NCBI GenBank assembly: GCA_031082205.1
Contig: JAVHLJ010000004.1
Coordinates: 8,942 to 72,941 of the forward strand
Source: Elusimicrobiales bacterium
GTDB lineage: Bacteria; Elusimicrobiota; Elusimicrobia; Elusimicrobiales; UBA9959
Direction of reading: 5' to 3'
DNA length: 64,000 nt
In this document: positions 2-28,400 of the stretch, piece after piece
Layout: every line of letters begins with the position of its first letter
Position numbering within the stretch: the first letter of the stretch is position 1
Notes under the pieces: generated by a model
What the model was told of the DNA's origin: nothing
Databases searched by the model: none
The model's input: the letters and a program-made list of their open reading frames with translations, nothing else
Position numbers and translations under genes: made by a program

Positions 2-781
2 GGCTCGCACGCGCTGGCGGAGAAATGGCTCAAAGAGATAAAGCGGCGCGCCCGGGGAGGGGGGAAGGATTCTCTGCCCTCGGCCCTCATGACCACGACG
101 CGTCTTTCGCTCGGCCGGGAGAAAGAGATCGTCGACGAGTACCGCCGGCTCGGTCTGGGCGGAGTTTTCCTGCGTCCCCTCTCGCCCATAGGCTACGCCG
201 GCTCGGTCTGGGAGGAGATAGGGTATCCTCCTTCCGCTTTCGCCGCTTTCTACGACAAGGCCCTGTCGTATATCATGCGGATAAACCTCGCGGGCGAGCG
301 CTTCGTCGAGCGCAACGCCGCGCTGCTGGCGCGCAAGATACTCTCGCGCGAGGACCCCAACTACCTCGACCTGCGCTCGCCCTGCGGCGCCGCCGCCGGC
401 CAGCTGGCCTATAACTGGGACGGGCAGGTCTATACCTGCGACGAAGGGCGCATGGTCGGCGCGCGCGGCGACCTGCTTTTCAGGACGGGTTCCTGCCGGG
501 ACTCCTCGGCGGCCGATCAGGCCGCCTCGCCCGCGTCCCGGCTCTGCGCCATGGCGTCCTGCCTGGAATCGCAGCATCACTGCTTCCGCTGCGCGTACAA
601 GCCCTACTGCGGGGTCTGCCCCGTCCATAATTACGAGACGCAGGGCTCGCCCTGGGGGAACATCGCCGCCGGCTCCTGGTGCGCCGTGCAGAAGGGGATA
701 TTCGCCGCGGTGTTCCGGCGGCTTTCCTCGCCGCGCGAGCGGCGGGTCATCGAGTCGTGGATAAAAGGGGACGGACGCTGA
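2..781 (+). CDS. hxsB: His-Xaa-Ser system radical SAM/SPASM maturase HxsB-like, 5'-truncated by the window edge
   Basis: Frame is open from position 2 (GSHALAEKW...SALMTTTRLSL). YLDLRSPCGAAAGQLAYNWDGQVYTCDEGRM and CFRCAYKPYCGVCPV match the HxsB SPASM region. Confidence 0.85.
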   Translation, partial: GSHALAEKWLKEIKRRARGGGKDSLPSALMTTTRLSLGREKEIVDEYRRLGLGGVFLRPLSPIGYAGSVWEEIGYPPSAFAAFYDKALSYIMRINLAGERFVERNAALLARKILSREDPNYLDLRSPCGAAAGQLAYNWDGQVYTCDEGRMVGARGDLLFRTGSCRDSSAADQAASPASRLCAMASCLESQHHCFRCAYKPYCGVCPVHNYETQGSPWGNIAAGSWCAVQKGIFAAVFRRLSSPRERRVIESWIKGDGR

Positions 782-1680
782 TGCCCGATATCCCCGTCTG
801 GCACAAGTGCGACAACCGCTGCGTGATGTGCACCAACGGGCCCGAGTTCGCGCGCCAGGAGGCGTCGCAGTACGGCCTGCGCTGCCAGGTGGGCAAGCTG
901 GAGCGCTACCTCAGCGGGCGCTACGGCAAGGTCTATCTCAAGAATCCCGACAAGCCTTTCTTCGTCAGCCTGACCGGCGGCGAGCCCACCATGCATCCAG
1001 AATTCATCAAGCTGCTGGCCTATTTCAGGCGCCGGCTTCCGGGCACCAGGCTGACGCTGCTGACCAACGGCCGCAGGCTGGGAGATAAAGCCTTTGCCCG
1101 CAGGGTGATGGCCGTGGCGGCTCCGCCCTTCTCCCTGGGAGTGCCGGTGCACGGGCCGGACGCGCGGACGCACGACGCCGTCGCGGGCGTGCGCGGCGCT
1201 TTCCGCCAGACCATGGCGGGCCTGCGCAACTTCATGGGGCTGCGCGCCGGCCAGGAACTGGAGATACGCGTCGTCCTGCACCGTCTCAACATAAAGAAGC
1301 TCGGCCCGCTGCTCGGGTTGCTGCTGAGGGAATTCCCGGACACCGCCGGCTACCGCGTCGTCCTTATCCATTACGAGATAGAGGGGATGTCTTCGGCGAA
1401 CAATAAAAAACTTTCGCTGCGCCTGTCGGATTCTGCCGAGGCCATAGCCCGGCTGCGCCCGCTGCTGGCCCGCTTCGCCGAACTGAGGCTCTATCATTTC
1501 CCGAGGTGCGTCCTGCCCGCGGACCTGCGCGGCCTCTGCTGGGTGACGCTGCCCGAAGAGGACCGGCTCTACCCGCCGGGGGCCTGCGGGGGCTGCGCGC
1601 TGAGGCGCGGGTGCGCCGGCCTCATGAAGGATTACGCCGCCGTTTACGGGACCGGCGAGCTGCGGAAGGTGCGCCGGTGA
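781..1680 (+). CDS. Radical SAM protein, HxsC-like
   Basis: Start moved to ATG 781 (TGATG overlap). CDNRCVMC, LTGGEPT, FPRC and C-terminal CGGCALRRGCAG. Confidence 0.85.
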   Translation: MPDIPVWHKCDNRCVMCTNGPEFARQEASQYGLRCQVGKLERYLSGRYGKVYLKNPDKPFFVSLTGGEPTMHPEFIKLLAYFRRRLPGTRLTLLTNGRRLGDKAFARRVMAVAAPPFSLGVPVHGPDARTHDAVAGVRGAFRQTMAGLRNFMGLRAGQELEIRVVLHRLNIKKLGPLLGLLLREFPDTAGYRVVLIHYEIEGMSSANNKKLSLRLSDSAEAIARLRPLLARFAELRLYHFPRCVLPADLRGLCWVTLPEEDRLYPPGACGGCALRRGCAGLMKDYAAVYGTGELRKVRR

Positions 1681-2834
1681 AATACCTGGCCCTGCTCACC
1701 TTCGCCGCTTTCCTCCTCTGGGGGCTGGGCGTGGTGCGCGAGGACGCCGAGCGGCGCAAGATCCCCAACGCCAGGATAGCCGCGGGTCTGAAGCTGCTGT
1801 TCTTCGCGCTGGCGCTTCAGGCGCTCAATACCGCGCTCGGGATGTCCGGCCGCGCCGACAGTTTCCTCAACCCGGAGTTCTACCGGCTGCTGGCCGGCCA
1901 CCTGGCCTGGACCGCGGCCGCCGGGATGGTGCTCTGGTACTCCGAGCTCTGGCCGGCCGGCGACGCCAAGTTCTTCATGGTCGCCTCGGCTTTCCTGCCG
2001 CTCATCCACCCGTTCGTCGGCGGCATGCCCGGATACCTCTTCCTGGTCTTCCTCATAAACACCTTCATAGCCGCCTCGCTTTACGTGCTGGGGTCCTATG
2101 TCGCCGAAGGGTTCCGGTCCGCGGCCCCCTCCGAGTTCTTCGCCAAGCTGCGCGGCGACGCGCGGCAGCGCCTGGCCGCCATAGCCGGCGAGAACGGCCG
2201 CGCGGCCGTGGCCCCGTACCTGCTCAATCTCGGTTTCATCTTCCTGCTGCAGCAGATACTCATGAAGGAGCTCAGCGGCGCGCTGTTCAGGGTCTTCAGC
2301 CACACGGGCGTGCTGTTCTTCTTCATGTTCTTCCTCTGGGACAAGATAGCGCCGTATTTCCGCAGCCGGGCATGGATGAGGGTCTCGGCGGTGTCTTACG
2401 CCCTCTATTTCGGCCTGGGCCTGCTTTTCTTCAGCGAGAGGCTTTTCGAGGTGGTCCTGGGCGCCGGGTCCAATGTCGCCAGGTTCAGCGCGCTGATCTT
2501 CGTCGGGCGTTTCATGCTGGAATACCTGATGGAGAAGAAGGACCTGGTCTACCTGCCGGCCGCCGAGGTGAAAGAGGGAGTGATCCTTTCCGCGGCCGAG
2601 CTGCGCGTCGCCCGCAACAACCCCGTTTTCGAAGGGGCCTTCGAGGACTGTTTCAAGGACGGTCTTTCGGAGGAGCAGGCCCGGCTCCTGCGCGAGTGGA
2701 TGGGCCGCCTGGCGGAGAAAGTGCCCGACCCCAAGATAGAGACCGTCAAGGGCAGACCTTTCGCCCTCTGGATATACGCGGGCGCGCTGCTGACGCTTTT
2801 CCTGGACAGGAACCTGGGACATTACATCAGATGA
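1677..2834 (+). CDS. A24-family prepilin/preflagellin (FlaK/PibD-like) aspartyl peptidase, polytopic membrane protein
   Basis: GTG start overlaps the upstream TGA. REDAERRKIPN and WPAGDAKF carry the two catalytic-type Asp. C-terminal VKEGVIL...GLSEEQ...PFALWIYAG resembles the FlaK C-terminal domain. Confidence 0.75.
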   Translation: MKYLALLTFAAFLLWGLGVVREDAERRKIPNARIAAGLKLLFFALALQALNTALGMSGRADSFLNPEFYRLLAGHLAWTAAAGMVLWYSELWPAGDAKFFMVASAFLPLIHPFVGGMPGYLFLVFLINTFIAASLYVLGSYVAEGFRSAAPSEFFAKLRGDARQRLAAIAGENGRAAVAPYLLNLGFIFLLQQILMKELSGALFRVFSHTGVLFFFMFFLWDKIAPYFRSRAWMRVSAVSYALYFGLGLLFFSERLFEVVLGAGSNVARFSALIFVGRFMLEYLMEKKDLVYLPAAEVKEGVILSAAELRVARNNPVFEGAFEDCFKDGLSEEQARLLREWMGRLAEKVPDPKIETVKGRPFALWIYAGALLTLFLDRNLGHYIR

Positions 2835-3781
2835 AAAAGAAAAAAACCTCCGCGCGCCCGAAGCGGCTGAAAATAGTCCTGTTCACCGGCTACCGGTGCA
2901 ACAACAACTGCCGCTTCTGCATCGACGCCGACAAGCGGGACCTGCCCGAGAAGACCACGGCGGAGCTGCTGCGCGACCTTTACGCCGCCAGACGCAAGGG
3001 GGCGAAGATAGTGGAGATAATCGGCGGGGAGTCCACGATAAGGCCCGATTTCCCGGCGCTGGTGCGGGCCGCCAGGCGGCTGGGGATAAAGGACGTGGTC
3101 GCGGCCACCAACGGCCGCGTCTTCTCCGATCCGGCGGCCGCCCGCGCGATAGTGAAGTCCGGCATCGGCGCTCTTATCTTCTCCGTGCACGGGCCCGACG
3201 CCCGCGTTCACGACGCGCTCACCCGTTCGCCCGGCAGCTTCCGCGAGCTCTCGCGGGGGCTCGAGAACCTGCGCGCGCTGGGCTTCCGCAATATCAACGG
3301 CAACACCACGGTGGTCAAGCGGAACATGCGCCGCCTGCCGGATATCGCCCGGTTCTACGCGCGCAACGGCGTGCGCAACGTGGAGTATATCTTCGTGGAC
3401 CCCAATTACGGCGGCGCGAAGAACGATTTCCGCGCCCTGGTGCCGCGCATCTCCGACGCGGCGCCGTACATGAGGCGGGCGCTGGACATCGGCAACAAGG
3501 CCGGCTTCACGGAGTGGAAGGTCCGCTACGTCCCGCTCTGTCATTTCGCCGGCTACCTCGGCCAGATAAGCGAGATCAACGAGCGGGCCCTTTTCGAGAC
3601 CGAACACTGGGCCCCCGATTTCATCAATCCCGACGCCATCGCCTCGCGCCGCGCCGTGGGCAGGCGCAGGACGGAGCGCTGCCGCGGCTGCGCGGCCTGG
3701 GACGCCTGCGAAGGCATCTGGACCGAATACTTCTCGCGATACGGCGACTCCGAACTCCGCCCAATGAAGAGGTACCCGTGA
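2831..3781 (+). CDS. Radical SAM protein, HxsC-like
   Basis: ATGA overlap start. CNNNCRFC, IIGGEST, VPLC, CRGCAAWDACEG. Confidence 0.85.
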   Translation: MKKKKTSARPKRLKIVLFTGYRCNNNCRFCIDADKRDLPEKTTAELLRDLYAARRKGAKIVEIIGGESTIRPDFPALVRAARRLGIKDVVAATNGRVFSDPAAARAIVKSGIGALIFSVHGPDARVHDALTRSPGSFRELSRGLENLRALGFRNINGNTTVVKRNMRRLPDIARFYARNGVRNVEYIFVDPNYGGAKNDFRALVPRISDAAPYMRRALDIGNKAGFTEWKVRYVPLCHFAGYLGQISEINERALFETEHWAPDFINPDAIASRRAVGRRRTERCRGCAAWDACEGIWTEYFSRYGDSELRPMKRYP

Positions 3782-4818
3782 GGACGCCCTCGCATCTGAC
3801 CGTTTACCTGTCGCGCGCCTGCGACATGGCCTGCGCGTACTGCTTCGTGCCCGGCGGCCGCGGCTCTGTGAAGCCCGCCGCGCTGAACGGTAAGATAGAT
3901 TCTTTCGTGCGGGCCGGCGGCGATAAGATCACTTTTCTCGGCGGCGAGCCGCTCCTGCGCTGGGGAGTGCTGCGGGCCGCGGTCGCGCGGCTGGCCAGGC
4001 TGTATCCCGGCGTCGGCGCGACCGTCTTCACCAACGGCGCGGCGCTTTCGCGCGGTCGCGCGGAGGAACTGCTGCGACTGGGAGCCAGGATAGTGCTCAG
4101 CCTCGACGGGGGCAGGGCCGACAACGACAGGTTCCGCAGGCTGAAGGCCGGGGGGTCGGCCTACGCGGCCGCGCTGCGGGACCTGCCGCGCGGGCTCAGG
4201 GCCCGCATGACCGTTTCCGCGGTGGTGCGGCCGGAGAACGCCGGGCGCCTGGCCGCCAATGTAATGTCCCTCTACTCGGCCGGTTTCCGCTCGATAGCCT
4301 GGGCGCCGGACATCAAGGCCTCCTGGGGCCCCGCCGAAGCCCGCGTTCTTTCGGCCGAACTCCTGCGTGTCGGGCGCGACTACGCCGCCCTGGACCGCGC
4401 CGGCCGGCCCGTCTACGAGATAGCCAATATCTACGAGCTCCTGGGTTCCATGCGCGGGGAGGACACCGCCGGCTGCGCCTCGATGACGCTGTCTCCGGAG
4501 GGGGCCGTCCTGCCCTGCGACAAGCTGCTGGCGGCGCCCGGTGCCTCGCGCCGCCGTTTCTCCGGCGCCGCGGGGCGCGCGAAGTTCTTCGCCGAGGCCG
4601 CCGCGGCGGGGGCCTCTCCGTCCGAACCGCTCTGTCCCGCCGGCTATTATTCGCTGCTGCGCCACGCCGGCGGGCTGGCCCAGTCCGACCTGCGCGCGGC
4701 CATGGACCTCCGCCTCTCATTCTCCAGGGCCTACGGCGCGGCTATGCGCCGACTGGTGAAGGCCCTCTCCCGCTTGCCGGCCTTCCGCCGCCGTCAGGGA
4801 CTGGAGGGGCCGCTATGA
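3778..4818 (+). CDS. Radical SAM protein
   Basis: GTGA overlap start. CDMACAYC, FLGGEPL, SLDG, and a GCASMTLSPEGAVLPC region. Confidence 0.8.
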   Translation: MRTPSHLTVYLSRACDMACAYCFVPGGRGSVKPAALNGKIDSFVRAGGDKITFLGGEPLLRWGVLRAAVARLARLYPGVGATVFTNGAALSRGRAEELLRLGARIVLSLDGGRADNDRFRRLKAGGSAYAAALRDLPRGLRARMTVSAVVRPENAGRLAANVMSLYSAGFRSIAWAPDIKASWGPAEARVLSAELLRVGRDYAALDRAGRPVYEIANIYELLGSMRGEDTAGCASMTLSPEGAVLPCDKLLAAPGASRRRFSGAAGRAKFFAEAAAAGASPSEPLCPAGYYSLLRHAGGLAQSDLRAAMDLRLSFSRAYGAAMRRLVKALSRLPAFRRRQGLEGPL

Positions 4819-6017
4819 AAAAGGGAGCCGGGGTGAAGGGGAAGTGCTACGAGCTGATATTAAATTACAACTGCAGCGCGCGCTGCCTGTTCTGTTCGCA
4901 GGGCAGCTTCGATAAATCTCTCAACGCCCCGACGCCGCGGCTGCTGGCCGATATCCGCGCCGCCTACAAGGGAGGCTACCGCCGTCTCGGCCTGACCGGC
5001 GGCGAGCCGCTCATCCGCCCCGACATGGAGAAGATAGTCGCCGCGGGCAGGCGGGCGGGTTTCGGGTTCATCCGCGTCCAGACCAACGGCATCCGGCTGG
5101 CCGACGAGGCTTTCTGCCGCCGGCTGGCCAGGGCGGGCCTGACGCTCGTTAAATTCTCTTTCACCAGCGACAGGGCCGCCGAGCACGACCTGCTCGTGGG
5201 GGTTAAAGGCGCTTTCGCGAAGGCCTCCGCCGGGGTGGAGAACCTGCGCGGGCTGGGCCTGCGCGTCGCCAATAATATCCTGGTCAACCGGCTCAATTAC
5301 CGCCGGCTGGACTCCGTCATCGACTACTGGCTGCGCAAAGGGATAAGCAGTTTCGTGGTCATCTATCCCGTCTATATCGGCAGCATGCGGGCCAATCACT
5401 CCAGGCTGGGGGTGAGCCTGCCCGACTGCGCGCCTTATTTCAAAAAAGCCGCCGAGCTGATGGAGCGGCGCGGGCTGGGCGGCGAGATCCTTTTCCTCAA
5501 CGTGCCGCCCTGCTTCCTCAAGGGCCGCGAGTCGCTGGCGATAGGGCTCGATAAGTTCAACACTACGGTCACGGACCCCGAAGGCGGGAGCAGCGACCTC
5601 GACGCCAACGCCGAGGAGGCCAAGGTCCACGGCCCGCCGTGCCGGCGCTGCGCGCTGGCCGCGCGCTGCCGCGGCGCCGACCGCAATTACGCGGAGCTCT
5701 ACGGCTGGCGCGGCTTCAGGCCTTTCAGGTCGCTCCCCCGGCCCCGCAGGGAAAAGGGCGGCCCCTCGGAGAGGACTTTCTTCTCCGACAATGAACGCTG
5801 CATGGTGAAAATACTCGAAGGGGGAGGATGGAAGACCACCGCCGCCGTGCTGGCCTTCTCCAAAAAGATGGCCATCTGCCGCGACTGCTCCGACGGCAAC
5901 GCCGTGCTCAACGCCGGCCTGTCGCTGGAGAAGAAGGGCCTTGTGGAGAAGAAACTGGAGCGCGGCGTATTCCTCTGGCGGACCAGGCCCGGCGCGGGCT
6001 CGGAGGAACGCGCATGA
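4815..6017 (+). CDS. Radical SAM protein (HxsC-like) with an extra C-terminal wHTH-like/CxxC domain
   Basis: CSARCLFC, LTGGEPL, VPPC, CRRCALAARCRG, followed by a tail of about 80 aa containing CRDC. Confidence 0.8.
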   Translation: MKKGAGVKGKCYELILNYNCSARCLFCSQGSFDKSLNAPTPRLLADIRAAYKGGYRRLGLTGGEPLIRPDMEKIVAAGRRAGFGFIRVQTNGIRLADEAFCRRLARAGLTLVKFSFTSDRAAEHDLLVGVKGAFAKASAGVENLRGLGLRVANNILVNRLNYRRLDSVIDYWLRKGISSFVVIYPVYIGSMRANHSRLGVSLPDCAPYFKKAAELMERRGLGGEILFLNVPPCFLKGRESLAIGLDKFNTTVTDPEGGSSDLDANAEEAKVHGPPCRRCALAARCRGADRNYAELYGWRGFRPFRSLPRPRREKGGPSERTFFSDNERCMVKILEGGGWKTTAAVLAFSKKMAICRDCSDGNAVLNAGLSLEKKGLVEKKLERGVFLWRTRPGAGSEERA

Positions 6018-6856
6018 GCCCTCTCGTGCACCTTCTGACCGCCTGCGACCAGCGCTGCGTGTTCTGTTCCTACCCGGCCGAGACCTCGGCCCCGGAAGGG
6101 GAGGGTCTCGCCTCGTGGGCGGCGGCGCTCAAAGAGCCGGGCCTGGTCCAGATATCGGGCGGCGAGCCGCTGCTGGCCGACAGGGGCGCGCTGCTTAAAT
6201 TCGTCCTCTACTGCGCCGGCCGTAAGCGGCGGGTGGAGCTGCAGACCAACGGCGTTCTTCTCGCGGGGCTGCCGGAGGCTTATTTCAGGCGGCTGGTCCG
6301 GGCGGTCGGTCTGTCCGGCGGCTATTTCAACGTCAATTTTCCGTCTGACACGGCCGCGGCCGATCTTAAGATAACCCGGGCCCGCGGGGCTTTCGCCGCA
6401 AGATCGCGCGGCGTTCGCCGGCTGATAAAAGCCGGGGCGGCGGTGCGGCTGACCCACGTGATAAATTCGCTCAATTACCGGCGCCTGCCGGCCTTCGTCG
6501 AATTCGCGGCGGGCCGGCTCGAGGGCGTATCCTGGATACAGTTCAGTTTCATAAAGGCTTCGGGCCGGTCCGGCGGCGGCCGGCATGTGCCGCGCTACGG
6601 GGCCGTTTCGCCTTACCTCGTAAAAGCGCTGGGGCTTTGCCGGGAGCGGGGGCTGGTCTGCGAGACCGACCACATACCGCCGTGTTTCCTCGGCGGGTTC
6701 GCGCTTTCAAGCGTGGACGCCAAAAAACTATCATCTGGAGAGCGGGGCCCGCAGCTGGCCGAGAAGGCCTATGTCGCCGCCTGCCGGGGCTGCCGCATGA
6801 AAAATATCTGCCCCGGTCCCCGAAAGGACTATATAAAGGTCCACAAGACGCTATGA
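6014..6856 (+). CDS. Radical SAM protein, HxsC-like
   Basis: ATGA overlap start. CDQRCVFC, ISGGEPL, IPPC, CRGCRMKNICPG. Confidence 0.8.
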   Translation: MSPLVHLLTACDQRCVFCSYPAETSAPEGEGLASWAAALKEPGLVQISGGEPLLADRGALLKFVLYCAGRKRRVELQTNGVLLAGLPEAYFRRLVRAVGLSGGYFNVNFPSDTAAADLKITRARGAFAARSRGVRRLIKAGAAVRLTHVINSLNYRRLPAFVEFAAGRLEGVSWIQFSFIKASGRSGGGRHVPRYGAVSPYLVKALGLCRERGLVCETDHIPPCFLGGFALSSVDAKKLSSGERGPQLAEKAYVAACRGCRMKNICPGPRKDYIKVHKTL

Positions 6857-8097: not shown

Positions 8098-8104
8098 GAC
8101 AGGC

Positions 8105-8145
8105 CCAATTATATAGAATATATTCAGCACATCTACGGAGGAAAA
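8105..8145 (+). promoter_or_regulatory. AT-rich promoter-like spacer and RBS for ygeY
   Basis: TATAGAAT in an AT-rich island, and GGAGG upstream of ATG 8146. Confidence 0.4.
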
Positions 8146-9336: not shown

Positions 9337-9365
9337 GCGCCGGCGCGGTCCCGTACGCGGTATGA

Positions 9366-9399
9366 CCCCCCGCGCGAGGGCGCGGGGGGGACGGTTTTT
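9366..9399 (+). terminator. GC-rich hairpin between ygeY and the next rSAM gene
   Basis: CCCCCCGCGC-GAGG-GCGCGGGGGG (perfect 10-bp stem); the T5 tract is offset by 5 nt. Confidence 0.5.
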
Positions 9400-9401
9400 C
9401 C

Positions 9402-14525: not shown

Positions 14526-15079
14526 GGCGGGCTCTTACCAGGGAGAATTTATTTTTCGGGCTGTCGCTGGTCCCGCTCGCCGTTTTCCTCCGCCTGGCGG
14601 GGATGGGCGGATATACCGACGAAGCCTGGGCCCTCTCGTTCAGGACCGGTGCCGCGCTCTGCGCCGGCTTCGCCGTCCTTTCACTTCGCGCCCGGGTCAA
14701 ACCCCGGGACGTATTCGGCGCCGCCGCGCTGCTGCTCTGCACCGGCGCCCTGTCTTTCCTGGCCGGCCTGGCCCCCGTCATAGACCTTTACCGCGAGTAC
14801 CAGGGGGCGGTGTTCATGTTCTGGTACGCGGCGCTGCGCCTGGCGCTCGCCCTGCGCCCAGTTCTCTTCGCCGTCTGGCTCGACGACAGGTTCTCCCGCC
14901 GCCGCGGCCTGGCCGCCCTGCTGGCGGCCGCCGCCTTCGCCTGGTCCTTCTTTTTCCACCGCGATCTGCTGGCCGGTACCGCCGCGCCGTTCATCCTCAT
15001 GAACGCCGCGCTGCACCTGGCCTGCCGCCAGCCGGCCGGCGGCGCGGGCGCCCGCGGGGACGAGGAGCCGTCGGCATGA
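14522..15079 (+). CDS. Hypothetical membrane protein (about 5 TM segments)
   Basis: ATGA overlaps at both ends; hydrophobic segments. Confidence 0.7.
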   Translation: MRRALTRENLFFGLSLVPLAVFLRLAGMGGYTDEAWALSFRTGAALCAGFAVLSLRARVKPRDVFGAAALLLCTGALSFLAGLAPVIDLYREYQGAVFMFWYAALRLALALRPVLFAVWLDDRFSRRRGLAALLAAAAFAWSFFFHRDLLAGTAAPFILMNAALHLACRQPAGGAGARGDEEPSA

Positions 15080-18074: not shown

Positions 18075-19668
18075 ACAGGCCGCCGGCGCCGGCCACGTAA
18101 AGATATTTTTCCGTGACCGCCAGAGCCGACGGCCGCGGCGTGGCGTAGAAAGAGCCCAGCCTCGCCATCGAGACCGCGTCGTAGGCGACGATTTCCCCGT
18201 CCAGGTAGGCGGCGGCGTACATTCTTTTCCCGTCGGGCGAGAATTTAAGCGAGCGGACGTGGGAGGGGGACGGTATTACGCGGCGGAAGGCCAGCGTGGC
18301 CGCGTCCAGCTCGTATATGCCGTACTTGAACACGCCGGGGGCGTAGAGCCTTTTCCCGTCCGGTGAAAGGGCGAGGTCCATCGACGGGTAACCCGTTTCC
18401 GCGGAATTCACCAGGGAGAAGGTCCTTTCGTCCAGCTCCAGTATGCGGCGGCCCGGCAGGGCGCCCCAGCCCAGCGCCATTCGCTCCCTGTCCGAGGCTC
18501 CCGGGTCCCTGCCGTATACCGCCAGCAGCAGCGTTCCCCGGAACGGGTTGCGTATCAGCTGGAATACCACCGAGCCCTTCTCCAGCAGTCCGGCCTCGTG
18601 CAGCGAAAGCGCCCTGAGCAGGCGGCCGCCGCCGTCGAGCTCGAAGAGGGCGGGATTGACGTTGTTAAGCGCGAACACCCTGCCGCAGGCGTTGTGAACG
18701 GAGAACAGTTCGTTCACCGGGGAGCCCGCGGAGGAAGGGGGCAGCGGATGACGCCGCAGTTCTCCCGCGCCGGGCCTGTACTCCAGCACTTCGGCGCGGT
18801 GCCAGGGCGCGAAGTAGAGCCGGTCCGCGCATTCGGACGAAAAGCGCCTGACCTGGGTCCCCTCTCGGAAGGAGCGGTAGGTCCCGCCGCGCAGGTCCAG
18901 CCAGGCGAAAGTGGGCGGCGGGGAAGGCTTCGGCCCGAAGGTCGCGCCGAAAGATGCCGCCGCCCATGAATCGTCCGGCGCGGCGTACACGTCGTGCGGG
19001 AACATGGCTCCGGCCGGCCAGGCTTCGCCGTCCGCCGGGACCAGTCCCGGGGACGGGAAGATTTTTTCAAGGACCGCCGGCGGAGCGCGATGCGGGCGCA
19101 GGGGGCTTTCGGGGAAGAAATAGAGCAGGGAGAAAAGGCCGGCCGTGGCCAGTCCGGGCAGCAGTATCGTCGCGGTCAGGCGGAACGAGGCGCGCCTGTA
19201 GGTCAGCAGCCAGTAGACGGCCGCTATGGCCGCGCCCGCCGCGGCCGCCGGCAGGGGGCTGGCGGCCCACACGGTCCGCGCCACGAAATGCCAGAGGCCG
19301 ACCAGTGGAAGAAAGACCGAATCGGCGCCCTGCGCGGCGGCGGGGTAAAAGAAGAAGAGGCCGCAGAGCGCGGCGAAGAAGAGCAGCCGTGCGTACAGGC
19401 CAAAGCGCACGGCGGGAGTCATTCCCAGGCGGCGCCCCTCTATGAGACGGGTGGCGGCGTATTCCAGGGCCAGCAGCGGCAGCGGGGGGATCAGCGCGGC
19501 CCAGAGAGGCAGCGGCAGGGAATGGTAGAAATAGATGTGCGCGGAACGGATGTAGTACAATTGTGCCAGCGCGAAGGCGGCCGGCGCCAGCAGGTAATAA
19601 GCCGCTTCGCCGCGGCTCCGCGGTGCGGGGGCTTTCCTTAAAATTTTTCCGAGTTCCTTTTTCATCAT
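18034..19668 (-). CDS. Membrane protein with N-terminal TM helices and a C-terminal YVTN/WD-like beta-propeller
   Basis: Start moved to ATG 19668/19665 (MMKKELGK). Hydrophobic N-half; repeats such as LALSPDGKRLY and LKFSPDGKRMY. Confidence 0.65.
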   Translation of the reverse strand: MMKKELGKILRKAPAPRSRGEAAYYLLAPAAFALAQLYYIRSAHIYFYHSLPLPLWAALIPPLPLLALEYAATRLIEGRRLGMTPAVRFGLYARLLFFAALCGLFFFYPAAAQGADSVFLPLVGLWHFVARTVWAASPLPAAAAGAAIAAVYWLLTYRRASFRLTATILLPGLATAGLFSLLYFFPESPLRPHRAPPAVLEKIFPSPGLVPADGEAWPAGAMFPHDVYAAPDDSWAAASFGATFGPKPSPPPTFAWLDLRGGTYRSFREGTQVRRFSSECADRLYFAPWHRAEVLEYRPGAGELRRHPLPPSSAGSPVNELFSVHNACGRVFALNNVNPALFELDGGGRLLRALSLHEAGLLEKGSVVFQLIRNPFRGTLLLAVYGRDPGASDRERMALGWGALPGRRILELDERTFSLVNSAETGYPSMDLALSPDGKRLYAPGVFKYGIYELDAATLAFRRVIPSPSHVRSLKFSPDGKRMYAAAYLDGEIVAYDAVSMARLGSFYATPRPSALAVTEKYLYVAGAGGLFRIPAAELDGALR

Positions 19669-20413
19669 GAACGATCTCGCGGTGATAATGCCCGCCTTCA
19701 ACTCCGCCGCCGGCGTGGGCCGCACCCTGTCGCGGCTGTCGGCCGTAAGACCCTCCCTGCCGCCGCTGCGCGTCCTGCTGGTGGACGACGGCAGCGCCGA
19801 CGATACCGCCGCCGCGGCCGGGTCCGCCGCGCGGGACCTGGGCCTGGACCTGCGCGTGCTCAGCCACGGGTCCAACCGCGGCTACGGCGCCGCGCAGAAG
19901 ACCGGCCTCGCCGCCGCGCTGGAGGACGGCTGCCGCGCCGCCGTACTCCTCCATTCCGACGGCCAGTACGCCCCCGAAGAACTGGCCGGGGTCTGCGGCC
20001 CCGTCCTTTCCGGCCAGGCGGAGGTATGCCTCGGCTCGCGCCTTCTCTCCGGCCGCGCCCGCGAGCAGGGCATGCCCTTCGCGCGCTACTGGGCAAACCG
20101 CGGCCTGACCGCGCTGGAGAACCTGGTCTTCGGCCTGGACTTCGCCGAATACCACAGCGGCTACATGGCCTATTCCGCCGCCGCGCTGCGCGCGATAAAA
20201 TTCGGGACCCTTACCGACCGCTTCCACTTCGACGGCGAGATGCTGCTCTGCGCCGGCAAGCTCGGCCTGCGCGTGGCGCAGGTGCCGGTCTCCGCTTACT
20301 ACGGCCCCGGCTCTTCCAGCCTGTCGCCGGCGCCCTATCTCGCCGAGGTGGCGGGCGTCATGCTGCGCTACCTGCGCCGCGGCTACTATTTCCAGCGCCC
20401 GGTCACTTCCTGA
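19667..20413 (+). CDS. GT2 glycosyltransferase (DPM1-like)
   Basis: VIMPAFN, VDDGSAD, NRGYGAA, HSDGQY, GSR, FHFDGE. Confidence 0.9.
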   Translation: MNDLAVIMPAFNSAAGVGRTLSRLSAVRPSLPPLRVLLVDDGSADDTAAAAGSAARDLGLDLRVLSHGSNRGYGAAQKTGLAAALEDGCRAAVLLHSDGQYAPEELAGVCGPVLSGQAEVCLGSRLLSGRAREQGMPFARYWANRGLTALENLVFGLDFAEYHSGYMAYSAAALRAIKFGTLTDRFHFDGEMLLCAGKLGLRVAQVPVSAYYGPGSSSLSPAPYLAEVAGVMLRYLRRGYYFQRPVTS

Positions 20414-21860
20414 GCGACTTCAGCGCCTCGTAGGCCAGCCGTTCCGGCAGCGGCCTCAGGAAATTATTCTTCAGCCTGAACCTCGCCACCGGCCTGTACA
20501 TATTGTAGAGCGCTCGCAGGAGCGCCGAGCCGGCCCCGTAATCGTCCATCTTCCGGTCGAGGAACCTGCTGACGAAGCAGGCGCGCTCGAGGAAATCCTT
20601 CAGTCCCGGTTCGCCCGCGTGCATGTGGGAGGTGTCCCACTCGTAACGCCCCCATTCCTCCAGCCGCGACGGGAAGCGGACGCCGTCCTTCAAAAGCCTG
20701 TCGTATATCTCGGTGCCGGGATAGGGCGAAAAGATGTAGAACTGCGGTATGCGGAAGTTGGGGCCCAGGTCCAGTATCCAGAGGCCGAAATCCATGGAGG
20801 CGCGCATCTCCGCCGGCGTCTCGGTGGGCAGGCCGACTATGAGCGAGCAGAGCACGTCTATCCGCCTGCCGCGGAAGCGGGCCAGCTGTTCCCGCGCCAG
20901 CCGCAGGTCTCCCGCCTTGTTCAGTACGTCGCGGCGCACGCGGTCCACGCCGGACTCCACCCCGACCGCCAGGCGCACCACGCCGGCCGACTCGAGGAAG
21001 TCGAGGTCGGCGTCCGTGAGCCGCGCCAGCGTCTCTATGTCAACGCCCTGCAGCACCGAGCCCAGCCCCATCTCCTTCAGGCCGGCCAGTATGGCCATGG
21101 CCCGGCGCTGGTCGATGAAGAAATTGTCGTCGAGGAAATAGACCAGCGAGAAATCGTAGCGGCCGCGCAGTTCGCGTATCTCGGCCAGGGCGCGTTCGGC
21201 CGTCTTCTCGCGCAGGCGGCCGCGGTTATATGCGCGGTTGTAGCAGTAGGCGCAGCGGCAGGGGCAGCCGCGGCCCGACTGGTAGAAGAACATCCGCCGG
21301 CCCTTGTAGGTCTGGGCGTAACGCTCCATGCCGGCCAGGTGATAGGCGGCCATGGGCAGCGAGCCGATCTCGAGCAGGTCCCGGCGTTCCGGCGGCAGCG
21401 GCAGGCCGTCCTTCTTGGTCCAGACGCCCGGTATTCCGGCCGCGTCCGTGCCGGCGGCCAGCCTGCGCGCCAGTTCCGCCAGCGCCAGCTCGCCCTCTCC
21501 CTCCACCACGTAGTCGGCCAGTTCATGCGCAAGCGTGGTCTCCGGCAGCAGCGAGGCGTGTATGCCGCCCCAGACCAGCGGGGCGGCCGTCAGGCGGCGC
21601 GCCTCGCGCGCCATCTCGAGGGCGTGGAAGATCATGCGTCCGGTCATGGCGGTCAGGCCGACCAGCACGGTGCCGCCGTCTATGGCCGCGGCCAGCGCGG
21701 CCCGCCAGTCCCGCTCGACGCGCTGGTCCACAAGCCGCACCTCCATCTCGCGGCAGATCACGGCGGCGGCCGCCAGCGGCCCCAGCGGCGGCGTCGGCCT
21801 GTCGCGGAACATGTCCATGTCGCCGATGCCGGGCTGCAGCAGGACGATATTGTGCTTCAC
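20403..21860 (-). CDS. B12-binding radical SAM protein
   Basis: GTG start. PPLG, VWGGIHAS, GEGE, SGRGCPCRCAYC, LDDNF, IVGLPTET. Confidence 0.9.
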   Translation of the reverse strand: MKHNIVLLQPGIGDMDMFRDRPTPPLGPLAAAAVICREMEVRLVDQRVERDWRAALAAAIDGGTVLVGLTAMTGRMIFHALEMAREARRLTAAPLVWGGIHASLLPETTLAHELADYVVEGEGELALAELARRLAAGTDAAGIPGVWTKKDGLPLPPERRDLLEIGSLPMAAYHLAGMERYAQTYKGRRMFFYQSGRGCPCRCAYCYNRAYNRGRLREKTAERALAEIRELRGRYDFSLVYFLDDNFFIDQRRAMAILAGLKEMGLGSVLQGVDIETLARLTDADLDFLESAGVVRLAVGVESGVDRVRRDVLNKAGDLRLAREQLARFRGRRIDVLCSLIVGLPTETPAEMRASMDFGLWILDLGPNFRIPQFYIFSPYPGTEIYDRLLKDGVRFPSRLEEWGRYEWDTSHMHAGEPGLKDFLERACFVSRFLDRKMDDYGAGSALLRALYNMYRPVARFRLKNNFLRPLPERLAYEALKSLRK

Positions 21861-22801
21861 GGAGCGTCCTCCGCCTGGACGACGAGGTCTTCAAGTACGA
21901 GCGCTCCGTAAAGCGAGGTCCCGGCCGGCACCGAGGCGCCTGGGAAGACGACGCAGTCCTTCAGCCTGGCCCGGGCCCCTATCCTGGAGCCGGCCGCTGC
22001 GACGGAATTTTCCAGCGCCGCGCCTTCGCCGGTCTCCGCCGAGGGGTGCGCGTAGGAGGCCAGGCCGCGCTCGGCTAGCCAGGCCCGGTTGGCCTTGATG
22101 ACGTCGGCGGGCCGCGTGACGTTGACGTCGAGACGCATCGTCTCCATCGTGCGCACGACGCCGCCGGCGGATATGAGCCCCTGTATAGCGTCGGTAAGTT
22201 CTATCTCGCCGCGCAGGGCGGAGGCCGGAGTGGCTTTGAGCGCGGGCATGAAGCGGGGGCCGAAGAAATAGACGCCGCAGGGTTTGGTCATGCTGAGGGC
22301 CCGCTCCGGCTTCTCTATGATGCGGGCGACGCGGCCGTCGGGGGCCAGCTCTATGGTGCACTCCTTCCTGATCTCCGCCTCGTCGCCCACTTCCCGCACG
22401 GACAGAAAGGCGTCGGCGCCGCCGGCGGCCATGGCCGCGCAGGCCGGCCCGAAATCCGCGCCGGAATAATATGTGTCGCCCAGGACCAGAGCGAAAGGCC
22501 CGCCGCCCAGGAAGGGTTCGGCCAGCGAGGCCGCGTGGCCTATGCCGCGCCGCTCGGCCTGGCGCGCCTCGCGGAGTACGGCGCCGGTGCCGTACAGCGC
22601 GCGGGCCGCCTCGGCCGCGGGGCGCGGGTCGGACGGGTCGGTGACGATGACGAATTTCCTGGTGCCGGCGGAGAGGAAGGAGCGGAGATGCATCTCCAGC
22701 AGCGTGCCGTCGCCGACGGGCAGCAGCGCCTTGGGGACGCGCCGTCCGGTCTCCCCCAGCCGGCTGCCGCCGCCGGCCGCCAGTATGACCGCGGGGATCA
22801 T
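21857..22801 (-). CDS. Sugar-1-phosphate nucleotidyltransferase (RmlA/GalU-like) with a short C-terminal hexapeptide-like tail
   Basis: ILAAGGGSRL, PKALL, LGD, IIEKP, RGEIELTDA. Confidence 0.9.
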   Translation of the reverse strand: MIPAVILAAGGGSRLGETGRRVPKALLPVGDGTLLEMHLRSFLSAGTRKFVIVTDPSDPRPAAEAARALYGTGAVLREARQAERRGIGHAASLAEPFLGGGPFALVLGDTYYSGADFGPACAAMAAGGADAFLSVREVGDEAEIRKECTIELAPDGRVARIIEKPERALSMTKPCGVYFFGPRFMPALKATPASALRGEIELTDAIQGLISAGGVVRTMETMRLDVNVTRPADVIKANRAWLAERGLASYAHPSAETGEGAALENSVAAAGSRIGARARLKDCVVFPGASVPAGTSLYGALVLEDLVVQAEDAP

Positions 22802-24123
22802 GAGAGCGCCTTGCCGGCCGCGGCGATGCCCGCCTCGATGCTGTGGTCCATGTTATAGACGGACCATTCGCCGAAACGCCCGGCGGAGATGATCCCCGCC
22901 GAGGCCAGGCGGCCCAGGCAGAAAGGAACGTCCTCGCCGTGGCGGACATGCGGCACCGGGTAGGCCGGGAAATGAGGGTAGAGCCAGGTCCTGACGATGT
23001 CGCGCCGCTTTATGACCCCGGAGCGGACCAGCCCGTCGGTGACCCTGCGCTCCAGCCCGGCGACGGAGCCGCCCGGCGGCAGCGCGCATTCCACGATCAG
23101 GGCTTTCCCGCCGGGCACGGCCCGGGGATTGAGCAGGTCCTCGCGCGTGAGCCTGTAGAACGGCAGCGCCGGGTCCGGCACGTATATCCAGTGGTAGGGA
23201 GGGAGGTCGACCGCCCGCAGGGCGTAATGGAAGCAGGCCACCTTGGTGGCGCGCAGCCGCCCGGCGGCCGGGTAGCACTCTTTCAGGCCGGCCATGCGCA
23301 CGGCGCGGTCGAGCGGCAGAGTGGAGATGAGCCGGTCATAGCGCACGGTCCCGGCGGAGGTGCGCACCGCTTTTTCGGCCGGGTCGATGGACAGCGCCTC
23401 GACGCCGCACAGCGGGCGCAGGGGTTCCAGGCCGGCCAGCAGCCCTTCGATGAGGGACTCTATCCCGCCGCGGCGCGGGTAGATGAAACTGGCGTGAGGA
23501 GCCGGGGCGGGCCGCCCGCCGTCCTTTATTCCGAGTATGCTGTCGGCGAGACCGGACGGGCCGGGGAGCCTTATCTTGGCCGCCATCCAGCCGTAGCCCA
23601 TGCCGGCGAGAGGCGTCTGCCAGAGCTTCTCGTTGTACGGACGGAAAAAGAGGTCCACTATGCCGGAGCCCAGCTCGTTCAGAGCGTATTCTCCCAGGTC
23701 GCGCGGCGCGGCAGCGCCCGGCCCCCCGCGCCGCTCCAGCAGGCTGCGCAGCACCGCGCGCCTGTCCTCGAGCGACAGCTGGCTTATATGGTCCTGGAAG
23801 GGGAAATCCACCCAGCCCCCCTTCCACATCACGCCCAGCCGGTGGCGGAATTCACGCACGGGCCCGGCCATGCGCCTGAACAGTTTCTCCGCGCGGGCGT
23901 TGCCGCCGAAAAAAAGGTGGGGCAGCTCGTCTATGGTCACGCCGTCGCGGTTGGTCTTGAGCAGTCCGCCCGGACGGGAGTCGCGCTCGAGCAGGAGGAT
24001 GTCGCGGCGCCCGGCGCGCAGCAGTTCGCGCGCGGCGACCAGGCCGGTCAGCCCGGCGCCCAGGATAACGACCCCGGCCTTCGCCGGCGGCGCGGAGGTT
24101 TCTTTTCGGGCCTTTTTTGCCAT
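22798..24123 (-). CDS. FAD-dependent oxidoreductase (protoporphyrinogen oxidase / UDP-galactopyranose mutase-like)
   Basis: ILGAGLTG, LLER...GGL, FRPYNEKLW, YPRRGG, AYPV, GRFGEW.YNMDHS. Confidence 0.8.
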   Translation of the reverse strand: MAKKARKETSAPPAKAGVVILGAGLTGLVAARELLRAGRRDILLLERDSRPGGLLKTNRDGVTIDELPHLFFGGNARAEKLFRRMAGPVREFRHRLGVMWKGGWVDFPFQDHISQLSLEDRRAVLRSLLERRGGPGAAAPRDLGEYALNELGSGIVDLFFRPYNEKLWQTPLAGMGYGWMAAKIRLPGPSGLADSILGIKDGGRPAPAPHASFIYPRRGGIESLIEGLLAGLEPLRPLCGVEALSIDPAEKAVRTSAGTVRYDRLISTLPLDRAVRMAGLKECYPAAGRLRATKVACFHYALRAVDLPPYHWIYVPDPALPFYRLTREDLLNPRAVPGGKALIVECALPPGGSVAGLERRVTDGLVRSGVIKRRDIVRTWLYPHFPAYPVPHVRHGEDVPFCLGRLASAGIISAGRFGEWSVYNMDHSIEAGIAAAGKALS

Positions 24124-24220
24124 CGGGAGGTACCTTAGGACAATATTAGCAAATAGGGGGGGAGGCCCCGCAGCGCCGCGGCGTTGGCGGCCCTCTCTCC
24201 AATTGTTATAGAATCAAAAG

Positions 24221-25258
24221 ATGGCCACAAGGGCGAGACCTTCCGGCGCGGATCCCCGCGCCCCGGTGAAGAACTGCGAGATCATCCTCAATTACGACTG
24301 CAACGCGCGCTGCGTCTTCTGCTACCAGCCCGAGGACGACCTGAAGCCCTGTTCCGAGAAGAGGATGCCGTTCGCCGCGGCCTCGAAAGCGCTTTACCAG
24401 GGCTACGCGCGCGGCTGCAGGTGCGCATATTTCATCGGCGGCGAGATCACCCTGCTGCCGGACCTGCCCAAGATAATAAAGCTGGCGGCTAAGATCGGCT
24501 ACCCATGGATACAGGTGATGAGCAACGGCCTGCGCCTGGCCGAAAAGGCTTACACGGACGATCTGATAGCCGCGGGGGCCAACCTGTTCAGGCTGTCGCT
24601 GCACGGGCCGTCCGAAAAGATACACGACAGGCTTGTGGGCGTGCCGGGGGCTTTCGCCAGGCTGACGGCCGCTTTCGACAACATAAAGTCCGGCGGAGCG
24701 GAACTCTGCGTCAACATGGCGCTCAACAAGGTCAATTACCGGTCGCTGCCGGAGATGGTGAAGCTGGTGACGGGCCGCTTCGGGGTCCGGGACTTCAATA
24801 TCATCTTCCCGCATTACAGCGGGATGATGGCCAAGAACTCCGGCCTCCTGAAGGTCAGCGTCGGCCAGGCCGTGCCGTACCTGCGCAGGACGCTGGCCTA
24901 TATGAAGAAGGCCGGCGTGCGGCCCGAGAGCCGCGTGCTCATAAATTTCTGTCCCTGCAATATCCCGGAGGCCGCGCACCTGATGGCCGAGTGGGACCGC
25001 CCCTCCCGTCCGGAGGACGACGAGCCGCTCTATTACGTGGAGGGACAGACCGACGCCGTCTATTCGGTGAAGGAGCGGATAAGGGTGAAGAACCCGTCCT
25101 GCTCCCGCTGCGTCTACGACCCGGTCTGCATGGGTTTCGAGAAGTGGTACGCCGACGTCTTCGGCCGCCGCGAGTTCCGGCCCGTGCTGAAAAAGCCGGA
25201 GCCGTTCCCCCTATTCCCGCTGCCGCGCCGCAAGCCGGCCCGAGAGGGCGGGCGATAA
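24221..25258 (+). CDS. Radical SAM protein, HxsC-like (close paralog of 9402..10490)
   Basis: CNARCVFC, FIGGE, SLHGP, FCPC, CSRCVYDPVCMG. Confidence 0.85.
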   Translation: MATRARPSGADPRAPVKNCEIILNYDCNARCVFCYQPEDDLKPCSEKRMPFAAASKALYQGYARGCRCAYFIGGEITLLPDLPKIIKLAAKIGYPWIQVMSNGLRLAEKAYTDDLIAAGANLFRLSLHGPSEKIHDRLVGVPGAFARLTAAFDNIKSGGAELCVNMALNKVNYRSLPEMVKLVTGRFGVRDFNIIFPHYSGMMAKNSGLLKVSVGQAVPYLRRTLAYMKKAGVRPESRVLINFCPCNIPEAAHLMAEWDRPSRPEDDEPLYYVEGQTDAVYSVKERIRVKNPSCSRCVYDPVCMGFEKWYADVFGRREFRPVLKKPEPFPLFPLPRRKPAREGGR

Positions 25259-26522: not shown

Positions 26523-26624
26523 TTTTTCTCCTCTTTTATCGTTCCCAACGGAAATCTTACGGCGGCGCCCGGCCTCCCGGGTGCCTAATGGATTAAATAT
26601 ATTGTATCGTTTTATTGTCAAGGT

Positions 26625-28390: not shown

Positions 28391-28400
28391 GGCGCGAATA

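Follow-up and report, generated by a model that had tools for sequence, protein, structure and literature searches.

Twelve radical S-adenosylmethionine (rSAM) genes lie within 25 kb of an Elusimicrobiales genome, and the question they raise is what so many radical enzymes might act upon. The genes occupy positions 2-25258 of the window, by which we mean the whole stretch of 64,000 nucleotides analysed (assembly GCA_031082205.1, contig JAVHLJ010000004.1, positions 8,942 to 72,941, forward strand). Their clustering is not due to chance, because the other 39 kb of the window contain a single rSAM gene (45097-46137). A first-pass annotation, made from the letters alone, had taken the cluster for a His-Xaa-Ser (HXS) type system with six HxsC-like paralogues. 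We consider it probable that 2-25258 is the bulk of an expanded maturation system of the HxsA4 type, with the HxsA4 substrate encoded upstream. Two issues bear on this conclusion: (i) whether a substrate with His-Xaa-Ser repeats accompanies the enzymes; and (ii) whether all of the rSAM genes belong to one system.

The canonical HXS system (hxsD-hxsB-hxsC-hxsA; TIGR03976-03979) blocks the entry of phage DNA (Li et al., Nat Commun 2026, PMC13128918). HxsB, HxsC and HxsD mature HxsA, which undergoes N-terminal processing, a change of +8 Da on the sequence SHRSS and export, and HxsC forms a complex with HxsD; 99.7% of the systems are found in Pseudomonadota, and >99.8% consist of four genes (PMC13128918). 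In a 2022 survey, HxsB and HxsC were annotated but uncharacterised (PMC9062424). Our literature search found no paper that mentions an HxsA4-type system or a multi-paralogue architecture.

The HxsA4 precursor and its partners

All six frames of the window were searched, and neither an open reading frame (ORF) with HxS repeats nor the HxsA4 leader motif is present, as the first-pass annotation had noted; its suggestion that a precursor, and perhaps hxsD, might be found upstream proved well founded. The upstream region was read from L001, a 126-kb Joint Genome Institute (JGI) metagenome contig that was found by exact-protein look-up of the gene starting at 781, matches the window at 98.0% identity along 11.7 kb and reaches 9.2 kb further upstream. 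In a scan of genomes, the closest ones were metagenome-assembled genomes of Elusimicrobia/Elusimicrobiaceae. Before window base 1, L001 encodes in order a barnase-barstar pair, a protein here called u213, HxsD, HxsB, a second HxsD, a protein here called u359, the HxsA4 precursor, an HxsB-like rSAM, a seventh HxsC-like rSAM and full-length g1, the gene that is truncated at the start of the window. Three other contigs from this species group repeat the layout, HxsA4 included, and place the left boundary of the cluster at bamA-ompH-lpxD. The full unit, from u213 to 25258, measures ~33 kb, with ~30 genes and ~15 rSAM genes, and 2-25258 is its downstream three-quarters. Its inventory includes three HxsB-type SPASM rSAMs, seven HxsC-type rSAMs (six of them in the window), two HxsD, two PapB-like rSAMs, a membrane protein resembling A24 prepilin peptidases and a SufS-like desulfurase.

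The hxsA4 gene precedes window base 1 by 3.1 kb. Its product of 107 residues consists of a leader (..F-L-x-S-E-E-G-K..), one hydrophobic helix and 13 H-x-S repeats (variants HGS, HSS, HAS and HNS) that lead to a C-terminal GGWC, the end of the protein reading ...HASHNSHGSHSSHGSHGSHASHGSHGSHSSHGSHGSHGSHARGGWC. The precursor passes the NCBIfam HxsA4 model (Table 1), one of a set of families that also includes HxsA3, HxsC4 (NF038332) and HxsD_rel (NF038315); it matches no canonical HxsA model and has no peptidoglycan-binding domain. Elusimicrobia and Omnitrophota both have homologues, a single match falls in a Diapherotrites archaeon, and NCBI already names some of the Elusimicrobiales and Omnitrophota proteins HxsA4. 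The leader and the ensuing hydrophobic helix are nearly invariant among 19 HxsA4 sequences, and the homologues have 3 to 22 repeats and end in GGWC or GQW.

Two HxsB proteins exceed the family cut-off (TIGR03978, 370 bits): the one upstream of hxsA4 (Table 1) and the full-length orthologue of g1 (L001:8574-10001; 432.7 bits). The g1 fragment itself scores 247.8 bits over profile positions 219-466, i.e. half of the profile. The two HxsD proteins score 34.5 and 40.8 bits (TIGR03976 cut-off, 50), and both have precomputed Pfam matches to HxsD (PF27806). By its precursor and its HxsB, the cluster is, to judge from sequence, a member of the HxsA4-type group and stands outside canonical four-gene HXS.

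The RFLxSEEG of HxsA4 bears a presumed resemblance to Flp leaders, and an Flp-like prepilin origin was considered; Flp and type IV prepilins have a cleavage motif of the G|xxxxE(Y) type. The idea was downgraded to a lead, because the 19 HxsA4 sequences gave no match to Flp or pilin Pfam families even at E<=5, only low-complexity collagen matches.

Three further proteins of the left part recur across related loci. u213 (L001:1887-2528) is a secreted protein of 213 residues, always encoded directly upstream of hxsD and present in one to three tandem copies; its N-terminus is highly conserved (..FFLCWHPGFLGSETLTLTTYYPAPYGGY..), its middle is variable, and a C-terminal G-x-M-[LI]-C-C-[KR] motif is conserved. 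It might serve as a partner or as a substrate besides HxsA4. u359 (L001:4717-5796; L013:8905-9987; L011:9027-10004; L012:9208-10026) is a Cys-rich protein of ~270-360 residues without a family match, whose gene directly precedes hxsA4 in several lineages, including Omnitrophota, and does so even in one locus that has hxsA4 at a great distance from the rSAM genes. The barnase (L001:832-1769) is conserved at the cluster's left edge throughout Elusimicrobia, usually followed by barstar; among 37 loci that were typed, a barnase was found in 14, and the same screen detected barstar in only 2.

HxsC-like paralogues and the conserved core

Genes were modelled by frame analysis of third-position G+C (GC3) and inspection of start codons, raw ORF lists being noisy because the DNA is 64-70% GC; families were assigned by NCBIfam and Pfam scans. 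Twenty-three genes were modelled in 2-26522 (Table 1). Sixteen of them run on the + strand from 2 to 18074, overlapping or abutting by 0-4 nt except around ygeY, and are followed by a mixed-strand group (18034-24123), one more + gene and ygeW on the - strand. The twelve rSAM genes are one HxsB fragment, six HxsC-like genes, two PapB/HxsB-N-like genes and three B12-binding rSAM (B12-rSAM) genes, in agreement with the first-pass annotation, whose coordinates are all correct gene starts. The nine non-B12 genes match PF04055 (E 4e-9 to 2e-22, the range that also covers the HxsC-like genes) and contain CxxxCxxC, save that the g1 fragment is without this N-terminal motif because the window begins inside the gene; the full-length orthologue has it. 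The three B12-type genes have CxxxCxxC and match B12-rSAM families, and orthologues of all three carry PF02310 and PF04055. The six HxsC-like genes are not a plain run after HxsB, as the first description had it, but are interspersed with the membrane protein g3, the SufS-like gene, ygeY and a 13.6-kb block.

Table 1. Genes of the cluster and its upstream partners. Positions are those of the window, or of contig L001 where so marked; scores are bits.
Feature	Position	Strand	Assignment	Family match and remarks
HxsB	L001:2979-4421		HxsB	TIGR03978 444.8 (cut-off 370)
HxsA4	L001:5816-6139		HxsA4 precursor	NF038313 69.7 (cut-off 55)
HxsB-like	L001, after HxsA4		HxsB-like rSAM, third HxsB-type	TIGR03978 277.9
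g1	2..781	+	HxsB-type rSAM/SPASM maturase, C-terminal 259 residues	N-terminus before the window
g2	781..1680	+	HxsC-type rSAM, nearest paralogue to canonical HxsC	TIGR03977 152.9 (cut-off 267.9)
g3	1677..2834	+	polytopic membrane protein; divergent family resembling A24 prepilin peptidases	candidate leader peptidase
g4	2831..3781	+	HxsC4-like rSAM	NF038332 140 (cut-off 500); HxsC 76
g5	3778..4818	+	PapB/HxsB-N-like rSAM without full SPASM domain	PapB 78.6
g6	4815..6017	+	HxsC-like rSAM with ~100-residue C-terminal extension	HxsC 79
g7	6014..6856	+	HxsC-like rSAM	HxsC 71.6
g8	6853..8097	+	SufS-like pyridoxal-phosphate (PLP) cysteine desulfurase	TIGR01979 258.5 (cut-off 475)
g9 (ygeY)	8146..9336	+	YgeY-family M20 hydrolase	TIGR03526 561 (cut-off 321)
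g10	9402..10490	+	HxsC-like rSAM	AhbC 81.8; HxsC 79.9; HxsC4 77
g11	10490..11527	+	PapB/HxsB-N-like rSAM, opens the accessory block	PapB 88.3
g12	11527..12978	+	B12-binding rSAM (BchE-like)	BchE 154, under cut-off
g13	12975..14525	+	CrtI/phytoene-desaturase-family flavin adenine dinucleotide (FAD) oxidoreductase	TIGR02734 210.7 (cut-off 238); Pfam Amino_oxidase
g14	14522..15079	+	small membrane protein	hydrophobic segments; orthologues in L005, L094
g15	15076..16626	+	second CrtI-family FAD oxidoreductase	TIGR02734 210.7
g16	16626..18074	+	B12-binding rSAM (HpnR-like)	HpnR 127, under cut-off; orthologues PF02310 + PF04055
g17	18034..19668	-	membrane protein with C-terminal beta-propeller-like domain	weak PD40/WD40 matches; hydrophobic segments
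g18	19667..20413	+	family 2 glycosyltransferase (GT2) resembling polyprenyl-phosphate sugar synthases	PF00535 E 1.6e-19; PpgS, AglJ weak
g19	20403..21860	-	B12-binding rSAM	ApyD 95; Sden_1168 94; L095 orthologue PF02310 + PF04055
g20	21857..22801	-	sugar-1-phosphate nucleotidylyltransferase	TIGR03992 105.6; RmlA-long 97.5
g21	22798..24123	-	FAD amine-oxidase-family protein (PRK07208-like)	orthologues in L094 (70% identity), L095 (49%)
g22	24221..25258	+	HxsC4/HxsC-like rSAM, last gene of the cluster	NF038332 94.8; HxsC 71.9
ygeW	25311..26522	-	YgeW knotted carbamoyltransferase	NF005538 675; right flank, excluded from the system

The motifs first attributed to the HxsC-like paralogues were rightly described, because the 18 invariant columns in an alignment of the six window proteins include C23/C27/C30 (CxxxCxxC), C237 (of 'P-x-C') and C284/C287/C293/G295 (CxxCx5CxG), together with a GGE. 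Seven cysteines are thus invariant, and the four beyond CxxxCxxC (C237, C284, C287 and C293) are putative ligands of the auxiliary Fe-S site that had been proposed; the C-terminal CxxCx5C is also present in canonical Aeromonas HxsC. The Pfam scan gave no SPASM match in any of the six. In an AlphaFold2 (AF2) model of g4 (pLDDT 78), the closest folds are of the SPASM/twitch class (GDGT-MAS, BlsE, SuiB, SkfB and MoaA), a predicted fold that fits an auxiliary-cluster enzyme and assigns no reaction. The C-terminal extension of g6 (residues ~300-400), a possible peptide-recognition domain that the other paralogues lack, matched nothing among PDB sequences.

HxsC or HxsC4 is the best or near-best NCBIfam match of all six genes, and HxsC4 is the best match of g4, g22 and the seventh, upstream paralogue. 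Here the first assignment needs qualification: HxsB passes its model, but no paralogue reaches the HxsC cut-off, for which g2 comes nearest and the other paralogues score 72-83 bits, and only g2 is close to canonical HxsC, the rest being sister lineages that stand nearer to HxsC4. The HxsC4 cut-off is likewise missed by all, the upstream paralogue reaching 156 bits, g4 140, g22 95 and g10 77. By these scores the HxsC-like paralogues are outside both equivalog families.

A neighbour-joining (NJ) tree, rooted on Aeromonas HxsC, took in orthologues from S2 (L003/L007), which is a sister species, and from S3 (L008/L013), a distant member of the Elusimicrobia. The paralogues form one family with shared cysteine motifs, rather than falling into unrelated ones, and group with the canonical outgroup, to which the g2 orthogroup is sister. 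The tree resolves 1:1 orthogroups over the three Elusimicrobia species: all three hold the g2, g4, g6 and g7 types, and two hold the g10, g22 and upstream-paralogue types. Pairwise identity is 25-40% among the HxsC-like proteins (40% between g10 and g22) and 36-50% among the three HxsB-type proteins, to whose rSAM cores g5 is 32-34% identical. The ratio of nonsynonymous to synonymous divergence (dN/dS) against relatives is 0.08-0.28 in every gene tested, which indicates purifying selection. From divergence, 1:1 orthology and dN/dS, it follows that the paralogues are, as far as sequence can tell, ancient, maintained and non-redundant enzymes, neither recent duplicates nor decaying copies.

The membrane protein g3 lies between two of the HxsC-like paralogues. 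Its 96 homologues nearly all come from organisms named Elusimicrobia, with a few annotated as prepilin peptidase or CpaA, and an exhaustive profile search retrieved 166 representatives at E<=1e-30 among 1.84 billion. The family invariants are D23 and W-P-A-G-D96-A-K-F-F. Peptidases of family A24 have two catalytic Asp residues, the second in a motif of the G-x-G-D type. Because PF01478 matches 11 of 21 homologues (best E 6e-6) and the Asp motifs are invariant, g3 is tentatively assigned to a divergent A24-like family. The family profile found nothing meaningful among PDB sequences, and a Foldseek search with the AF2 model of g3 (pLDDT 82.7) gave no PDB match at E<0.1.

A scan of metagenomes with the g3 alignment yielded 80 loci, and the ORFs of the 37 that measure at least 12 kb (GC 26-72%) were typed by blastp against the cluster proteins. 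HxsC-like genes flank the g3 homologue in all 37, and HxsB is present in 30, HxsD in 20, u213 in 19, SufS of the g8 type (downstream of the rSAM run) and U32 proteins in 15 each, barnase in 14, g5/g11-type rSAMs in 12, YgeY in 11, HemN-like rSAMs in 8, B12-rSAMs in 4, and nitrogenase-like and TP_methylase genes in 3 each. Gene order is also kept: the sequence g2-type, g3, g4-type occurs in ~28 of 36 loci, with the g2-type gene directly upstream of g3 in 28/36 and the g4-type gene directly downstream in 29/36. Within +-10 kb there is a median of 6 rSAM genes and a maximum of 13. In the Omnitrophota locus L011 the order is u213-like, HxsD (69.7 bits), HxsB (536 bits), u359-like, HxsA4, HxsC4-like, HxsC-like (179 bits), g3-like, HxsC4-like and a protein of 738 residues in which a B12-binding rSAM is fused to an HxsC-like rSAM (L011:14898-17114). 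In S3 the precursor gene is ~13 kb downstream of g3, past YgeY-YgeW-HxsB, and therefore many of the +-10-kb loci show no precursor. The refuting outcome named in the first-pass annotation, paralogues of unrelated families in a clustering that is not conserved, is contradicted by these 37 loci and two phyla. The synteny and orthology indicate that the cluster is vertically inherited in Elusimicrobiaceae, with a core conserved in Elusimicrobia and in Omnitrophota.

Set against canonical HXS, the system shares HxsB-type SPASM rSAMs above the family cut-off, small HxsD-like proteins, rSAM paralogues with HxsC as best or near-best match and a C-terminal CxxCx5C, and a substrate whose His-X-Ser repeats stand in tandem and whose N-terminal region is probably cleaved off. 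It differs in having ~15 rSAM genes rather than 2, HxsC-type genes that are all under the HxsC cut-off, a short HxsA4-type precursor with a hydrophobic helix and 13-22 repeats, and an added A24-like membrane protein, SufS and accessory modules; its hosts are Elusimicrobiota and Omnitrophota, and the cluster is syntenic and vertically inherited, not borne on plasmids or islands. It also departs from NCBIfam HxsC4, for which scores are 95-156 here and at most 208 in Omnitrophota genes, far from the cut-off of 500.

The accessory block and flanking genes

The block at 10490-24123 (g11-g21) adjoins the core closely: the start of g11 and the stop of g10 share one base, and g11-g16 are coupled. The family scans gave no match for g14; g17 probably starts at 19668 and has an orthologue in L095; and the g12 orthologue in L001 has PF02310 and PF04055 on record. 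Homologues of g13 adjoin B12-rSAMs in Elusimicrobia and Omnitrophota. S2 and the related L004 have their g22 orthologue directly after that of g10, and in place of the block these loci carry extra HxsC-like genes, a HemN-like rSAM, a NifH-like::nitrogenase-like fusion (CfbC, 217 bits, in S2), a BchN-like gene and a U32 protein. In L095, an Elusimicrobia locus of 36% GC, orthologues of g11, g12, g16, g19, one CrtI, g21, g20, g18 and g17 (9 of 11 block genes) lie between YgeY and YgeW, with the g11 orthologue after YgeY and a g22 orthologue (62% identity) after the block. Absence from S2, presence at the same site in L095 and a set that stands alone in Omnitrophota therefore mark the block, on this comparative evidence, as an old and portable module, recurrent inside the cluster yet not obligatory. 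The three B12-rSAMs that the first-pass annotation counted are indeed present, but they belong to this separable module. The block is probably a lineage-variable tailoring module, perhaps for methylation, desaturation or glycosylation, and its B12-rSAMs may act on another substrate.

The M20 hydrolase gene ygeY sits among the rSAM genes with a promoter-like site at 8096-8124 and, at 9366-9389 in the gap that separates its stop codon from the rSAM gene after it, a hairpin of 10 GC pairs with a T run behind it. With these signals ygeY is probably transcribed separately from the cluster genes around it, and its own terminator argues against membership in the operon. The gene adjoins the cluster in 11 of 37 loci. 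The idea that ygeY/ygeW mark a site of chance insertion was not adopted, because neighbourhoods of 26% to 68% GC repeatedly pair the rSAM cluster with SufS-YgeY(-YgeW), a recurrence that may reflect a functional link or conserved synteny alone. Synonymous divergence (dS) from S2 (L003) is 0.15-0.18 for g8 and ygeY (6853-9336) and 0.48-0.77 for the flanking rSAM genes; the low values point to strong codon constraint or recent recombination.

On the right flank (25311-29642) lie ygeW, a poly-gamma-glutamate hydrolase-like lipoprotein, a carbamate kinase and a threonine-synthase-like PLP enzyme. The thirteenth rSAM of the window (45097-46137, +; 346 residues, PF04055 and SPASM domain) is 20 kb beyond the cluster, directly upstream of a gene for a giant protein of 4548 residues (46664-60310, +) that has many fn3, lamin-tail and beta-propeller domains and is followed by a PQQ-like propeller protein of 1079 residues (60277-63516, +). 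Both are probably cell-surface proteins.

What the cluster may make

If the cluster matures HxsA4, the process can be sketched by analogy with canonical HXS. Enzymes of the HxsB, HxsC and HxsD types would covalently modify His and Ser residues of the HxsA4 repeats in the cytoplasm, and the non-redundant B-C pairs, of which there are several, and the additional C-like proteins may carry out successive steps or serve specific sites or different repeat variants. g3 would cleave the HxsA4 leader at the conserved Gly, SufS would feed sulfur to the numerous Fe-S clusters, and the product could be anchored in the membrane by its hydrophobic helix with the modified His-rich tail outside the cytoplasm. 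The accessory block may supply lineage-specific tailoring, with HemN-like, U32 or nitrogenase-like genes replacing it in sister lineages. On the same analogy, it is reasonable to suppose, as was first proposed, that the substrate is heavily or combinatorially modified. The product might serve as an envelope barrier, like that of HXS, as a metal binder or as a cofactor.

Multi-rSAM pathways for ribosomally synthesised and post-translationally modified peptides (RiPPs) are a second point of reference. In proteusins such as the polytheonamides, rSAM epimerases act together with B12-rSAM C-methyltransferases, and SuiB and PapB are SPASM maturases. The present cluster is similar in that one ribosomal peptide would receive several rSAM tailoring enzymes and lose its leader; the modelled fold of g4 is of the SuiB/SkfB class, and PapB is the best match of g5 and g11. 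It differs in that a RiPP recognition element (RRE/PqqD domain) was not detected. To our knowledge, the scale of the paralogue expansion and a His-X-Ser target are unlike any characterised RiPP.

Several points weigh against maturation of HxsA4 by the whole cluster. Modification of the peptide is proposed by analogy with canonical HXS, and the precursor is outside the window and known solely from close relatives at 87-98% DNA identity; in many related loci it is >10 kb from the core or absent from the fetched flank. Both HxsD proteins are under their cut-off, no paralogue reaches those of HxsC or HxsC4, and g10 scores equally against AhbC. Cleavage by g3 has against it that g3 itself is unmatched by PF01478 and has no fold or sequence match in the PDB, that the HxsA4 leader matches no Flp pilin family in Pfam, and that the residue behind the putative cleavage Gly is a Lys, which is unusual in A24 substrates. 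Finally, ygeY lies inside the cluster with its own terminator, and a set of CrtI and three B12-rSAMs also stands alone in Omnitrophota (L096).

The last observation would be expected if an Hxs peptide system stood beside an independent cluster for lipid or glycan modification (10490-24123) with a different substrate. The Hxs part would then comprise the upstream genes through 8097, 9402-10490 and 24221-25258, and 'twelve rSAMs' would overstate one system. We regard this division as somewhat unlikely. It would explain why g10 leads directly to g22 in S2 and L004, why CrtI, g17 and GT2 genes appear in 0 of the 37 surveyed loci, and why L096 has zero Hxs genes within +-10 kb; the block's genes run in part on the other strand, and those for the GT2, the NTP-transferase and the membrane propeller look like members of polyprenyl-sugar pathways. 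Yet the block is joined to g10 by a shared base and bracketed by HxsC-like genes, the 36%-GC locus retains nine of its orthologues at the same place in an Hxs cluster, a B12-rSAM is fused to an HxsC-like protein in Omnitrophota, and B12-rSAMs follow SufS in 4 surveyed loci. A role in anti-phage defence, in which a modified HxS-repeat effector would sit in the periplasm and keep phage DNA out, is unlikely in our view, although HxsB, HxsD and the HxS repeats are homologous to their counterparts in the antiviral system (PMC13128918), a leader and helix would place the repeats outside the cytoplasm, and a barnase-barstar pair stands at the left edge. Fifteen rSAM enzymes are far from the norm of four genes (>99.8% of HXS systems), the peptidoglycan-binding domain is absent, and a PADLOC scan of the core proteins named no defence system and found no more than generic rSAM similarity of the viperin type. 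The syntenic site by housekeeping genes and the 1:1 orthologues over GC 26-72% are unlike mobile, patchy defence islands; such deep vertical conservation argues against a typical island, and an envelope-barrier role is still compatible with it.

The rSAM suite might instead remodel a tetrapyrrole or another cofactor, with His-rich HxsA4 as a metal chaperone or carrier. CrtI-like enzymes belong to the flavin amine-oxidase family PF01593, which also includes protoporphyrinogen oxidases; the best matches of g10 and g12 are AhbC and BchE, respectively; and S2 adds its CfbC-like NifH fusion, BchN-like gene and HemN-like rSAM to a cluster of this kind. Meheust et al. (2020, 10.1101/765248) reported as many as 13 rSAM genes next to NifH/D/K of group VI in Elusimicrobia and predicted a reduction of tetrapyrroles, in a main text where 'peptide' and 'His-Xaa' never occur; the function of group VI is still listed as unknown in a 2026 review (PMC13474568). 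That suite shares with the present cluster its phylum, its large number of clustered rSAM genes, some of B12 or HemN type, and, in S2, the presence of NifH-like and BchN-like genes within the same cluster; g3 homologues, one of them distant, occur among nitrogenase-like genes. Because the nitrogenase-associated loci that we fetched hold g3 homologues and HxsC-like rSAMs, and S2 has both, the suite probably belongs to this Hxs-type family. Unlike those loci of groundwater Elusimicrobia, the window has none of the nitrogenase-like, TP_methylase and TPR genes of sister clusters, also when searched by tblastn with the NifH-like and BchN-like proteins, and no other tetrapyrrole genes. Nitrogenase-like genes are accessory across the survey (3/37), the AhbC, BchE and HpnR scores are all far under the cut-offs, and the conserved core of HxsB, HxsD and HxsA4 is the hallmark of a protein-directed system. 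A tetrapyrrole pathway with HxsA4 as chaperone is accordingly the explanation that we find highly doubtful. The converse proposal, that the group VI-associated suite is itself an elaboration of HxsA4 maturation, whose product is a cross-linked membrane-anchored polymer or a peptide-derived cofactor, is speculative, and we give it little chance at present. If it were true, up to ~15 rSAMs, B12-rSAMs and flavoenzymes would build a new class of heavily cross-linked product from a ribosomal peptide, and the nitrogenase-like reductase of some lineages would also use a peptide-derived substrate.

Maturation of HxsA4 by an expanded Hxs system, the reading that we prefer, bears on a family whose canonical function was assigned only in 2026 and whose chemistry (+8 Da on SHRSS) is still unsolved. 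At least 10 non-redundant members of the HxsB and HxsC types are present phylum-wide and in a second phylum, and such expanded, conserved families therefore point to a richer radical chemistry directed at His and Ser than is known. The cluster would provide many natural enzyme-substrate combinations for dissecting this chemistry. We suggest that HxsA4 is a concrete candidate for the substrate of the rSAM suites that have been known since 2020 to accompany group VI nitrogenase paralogues.

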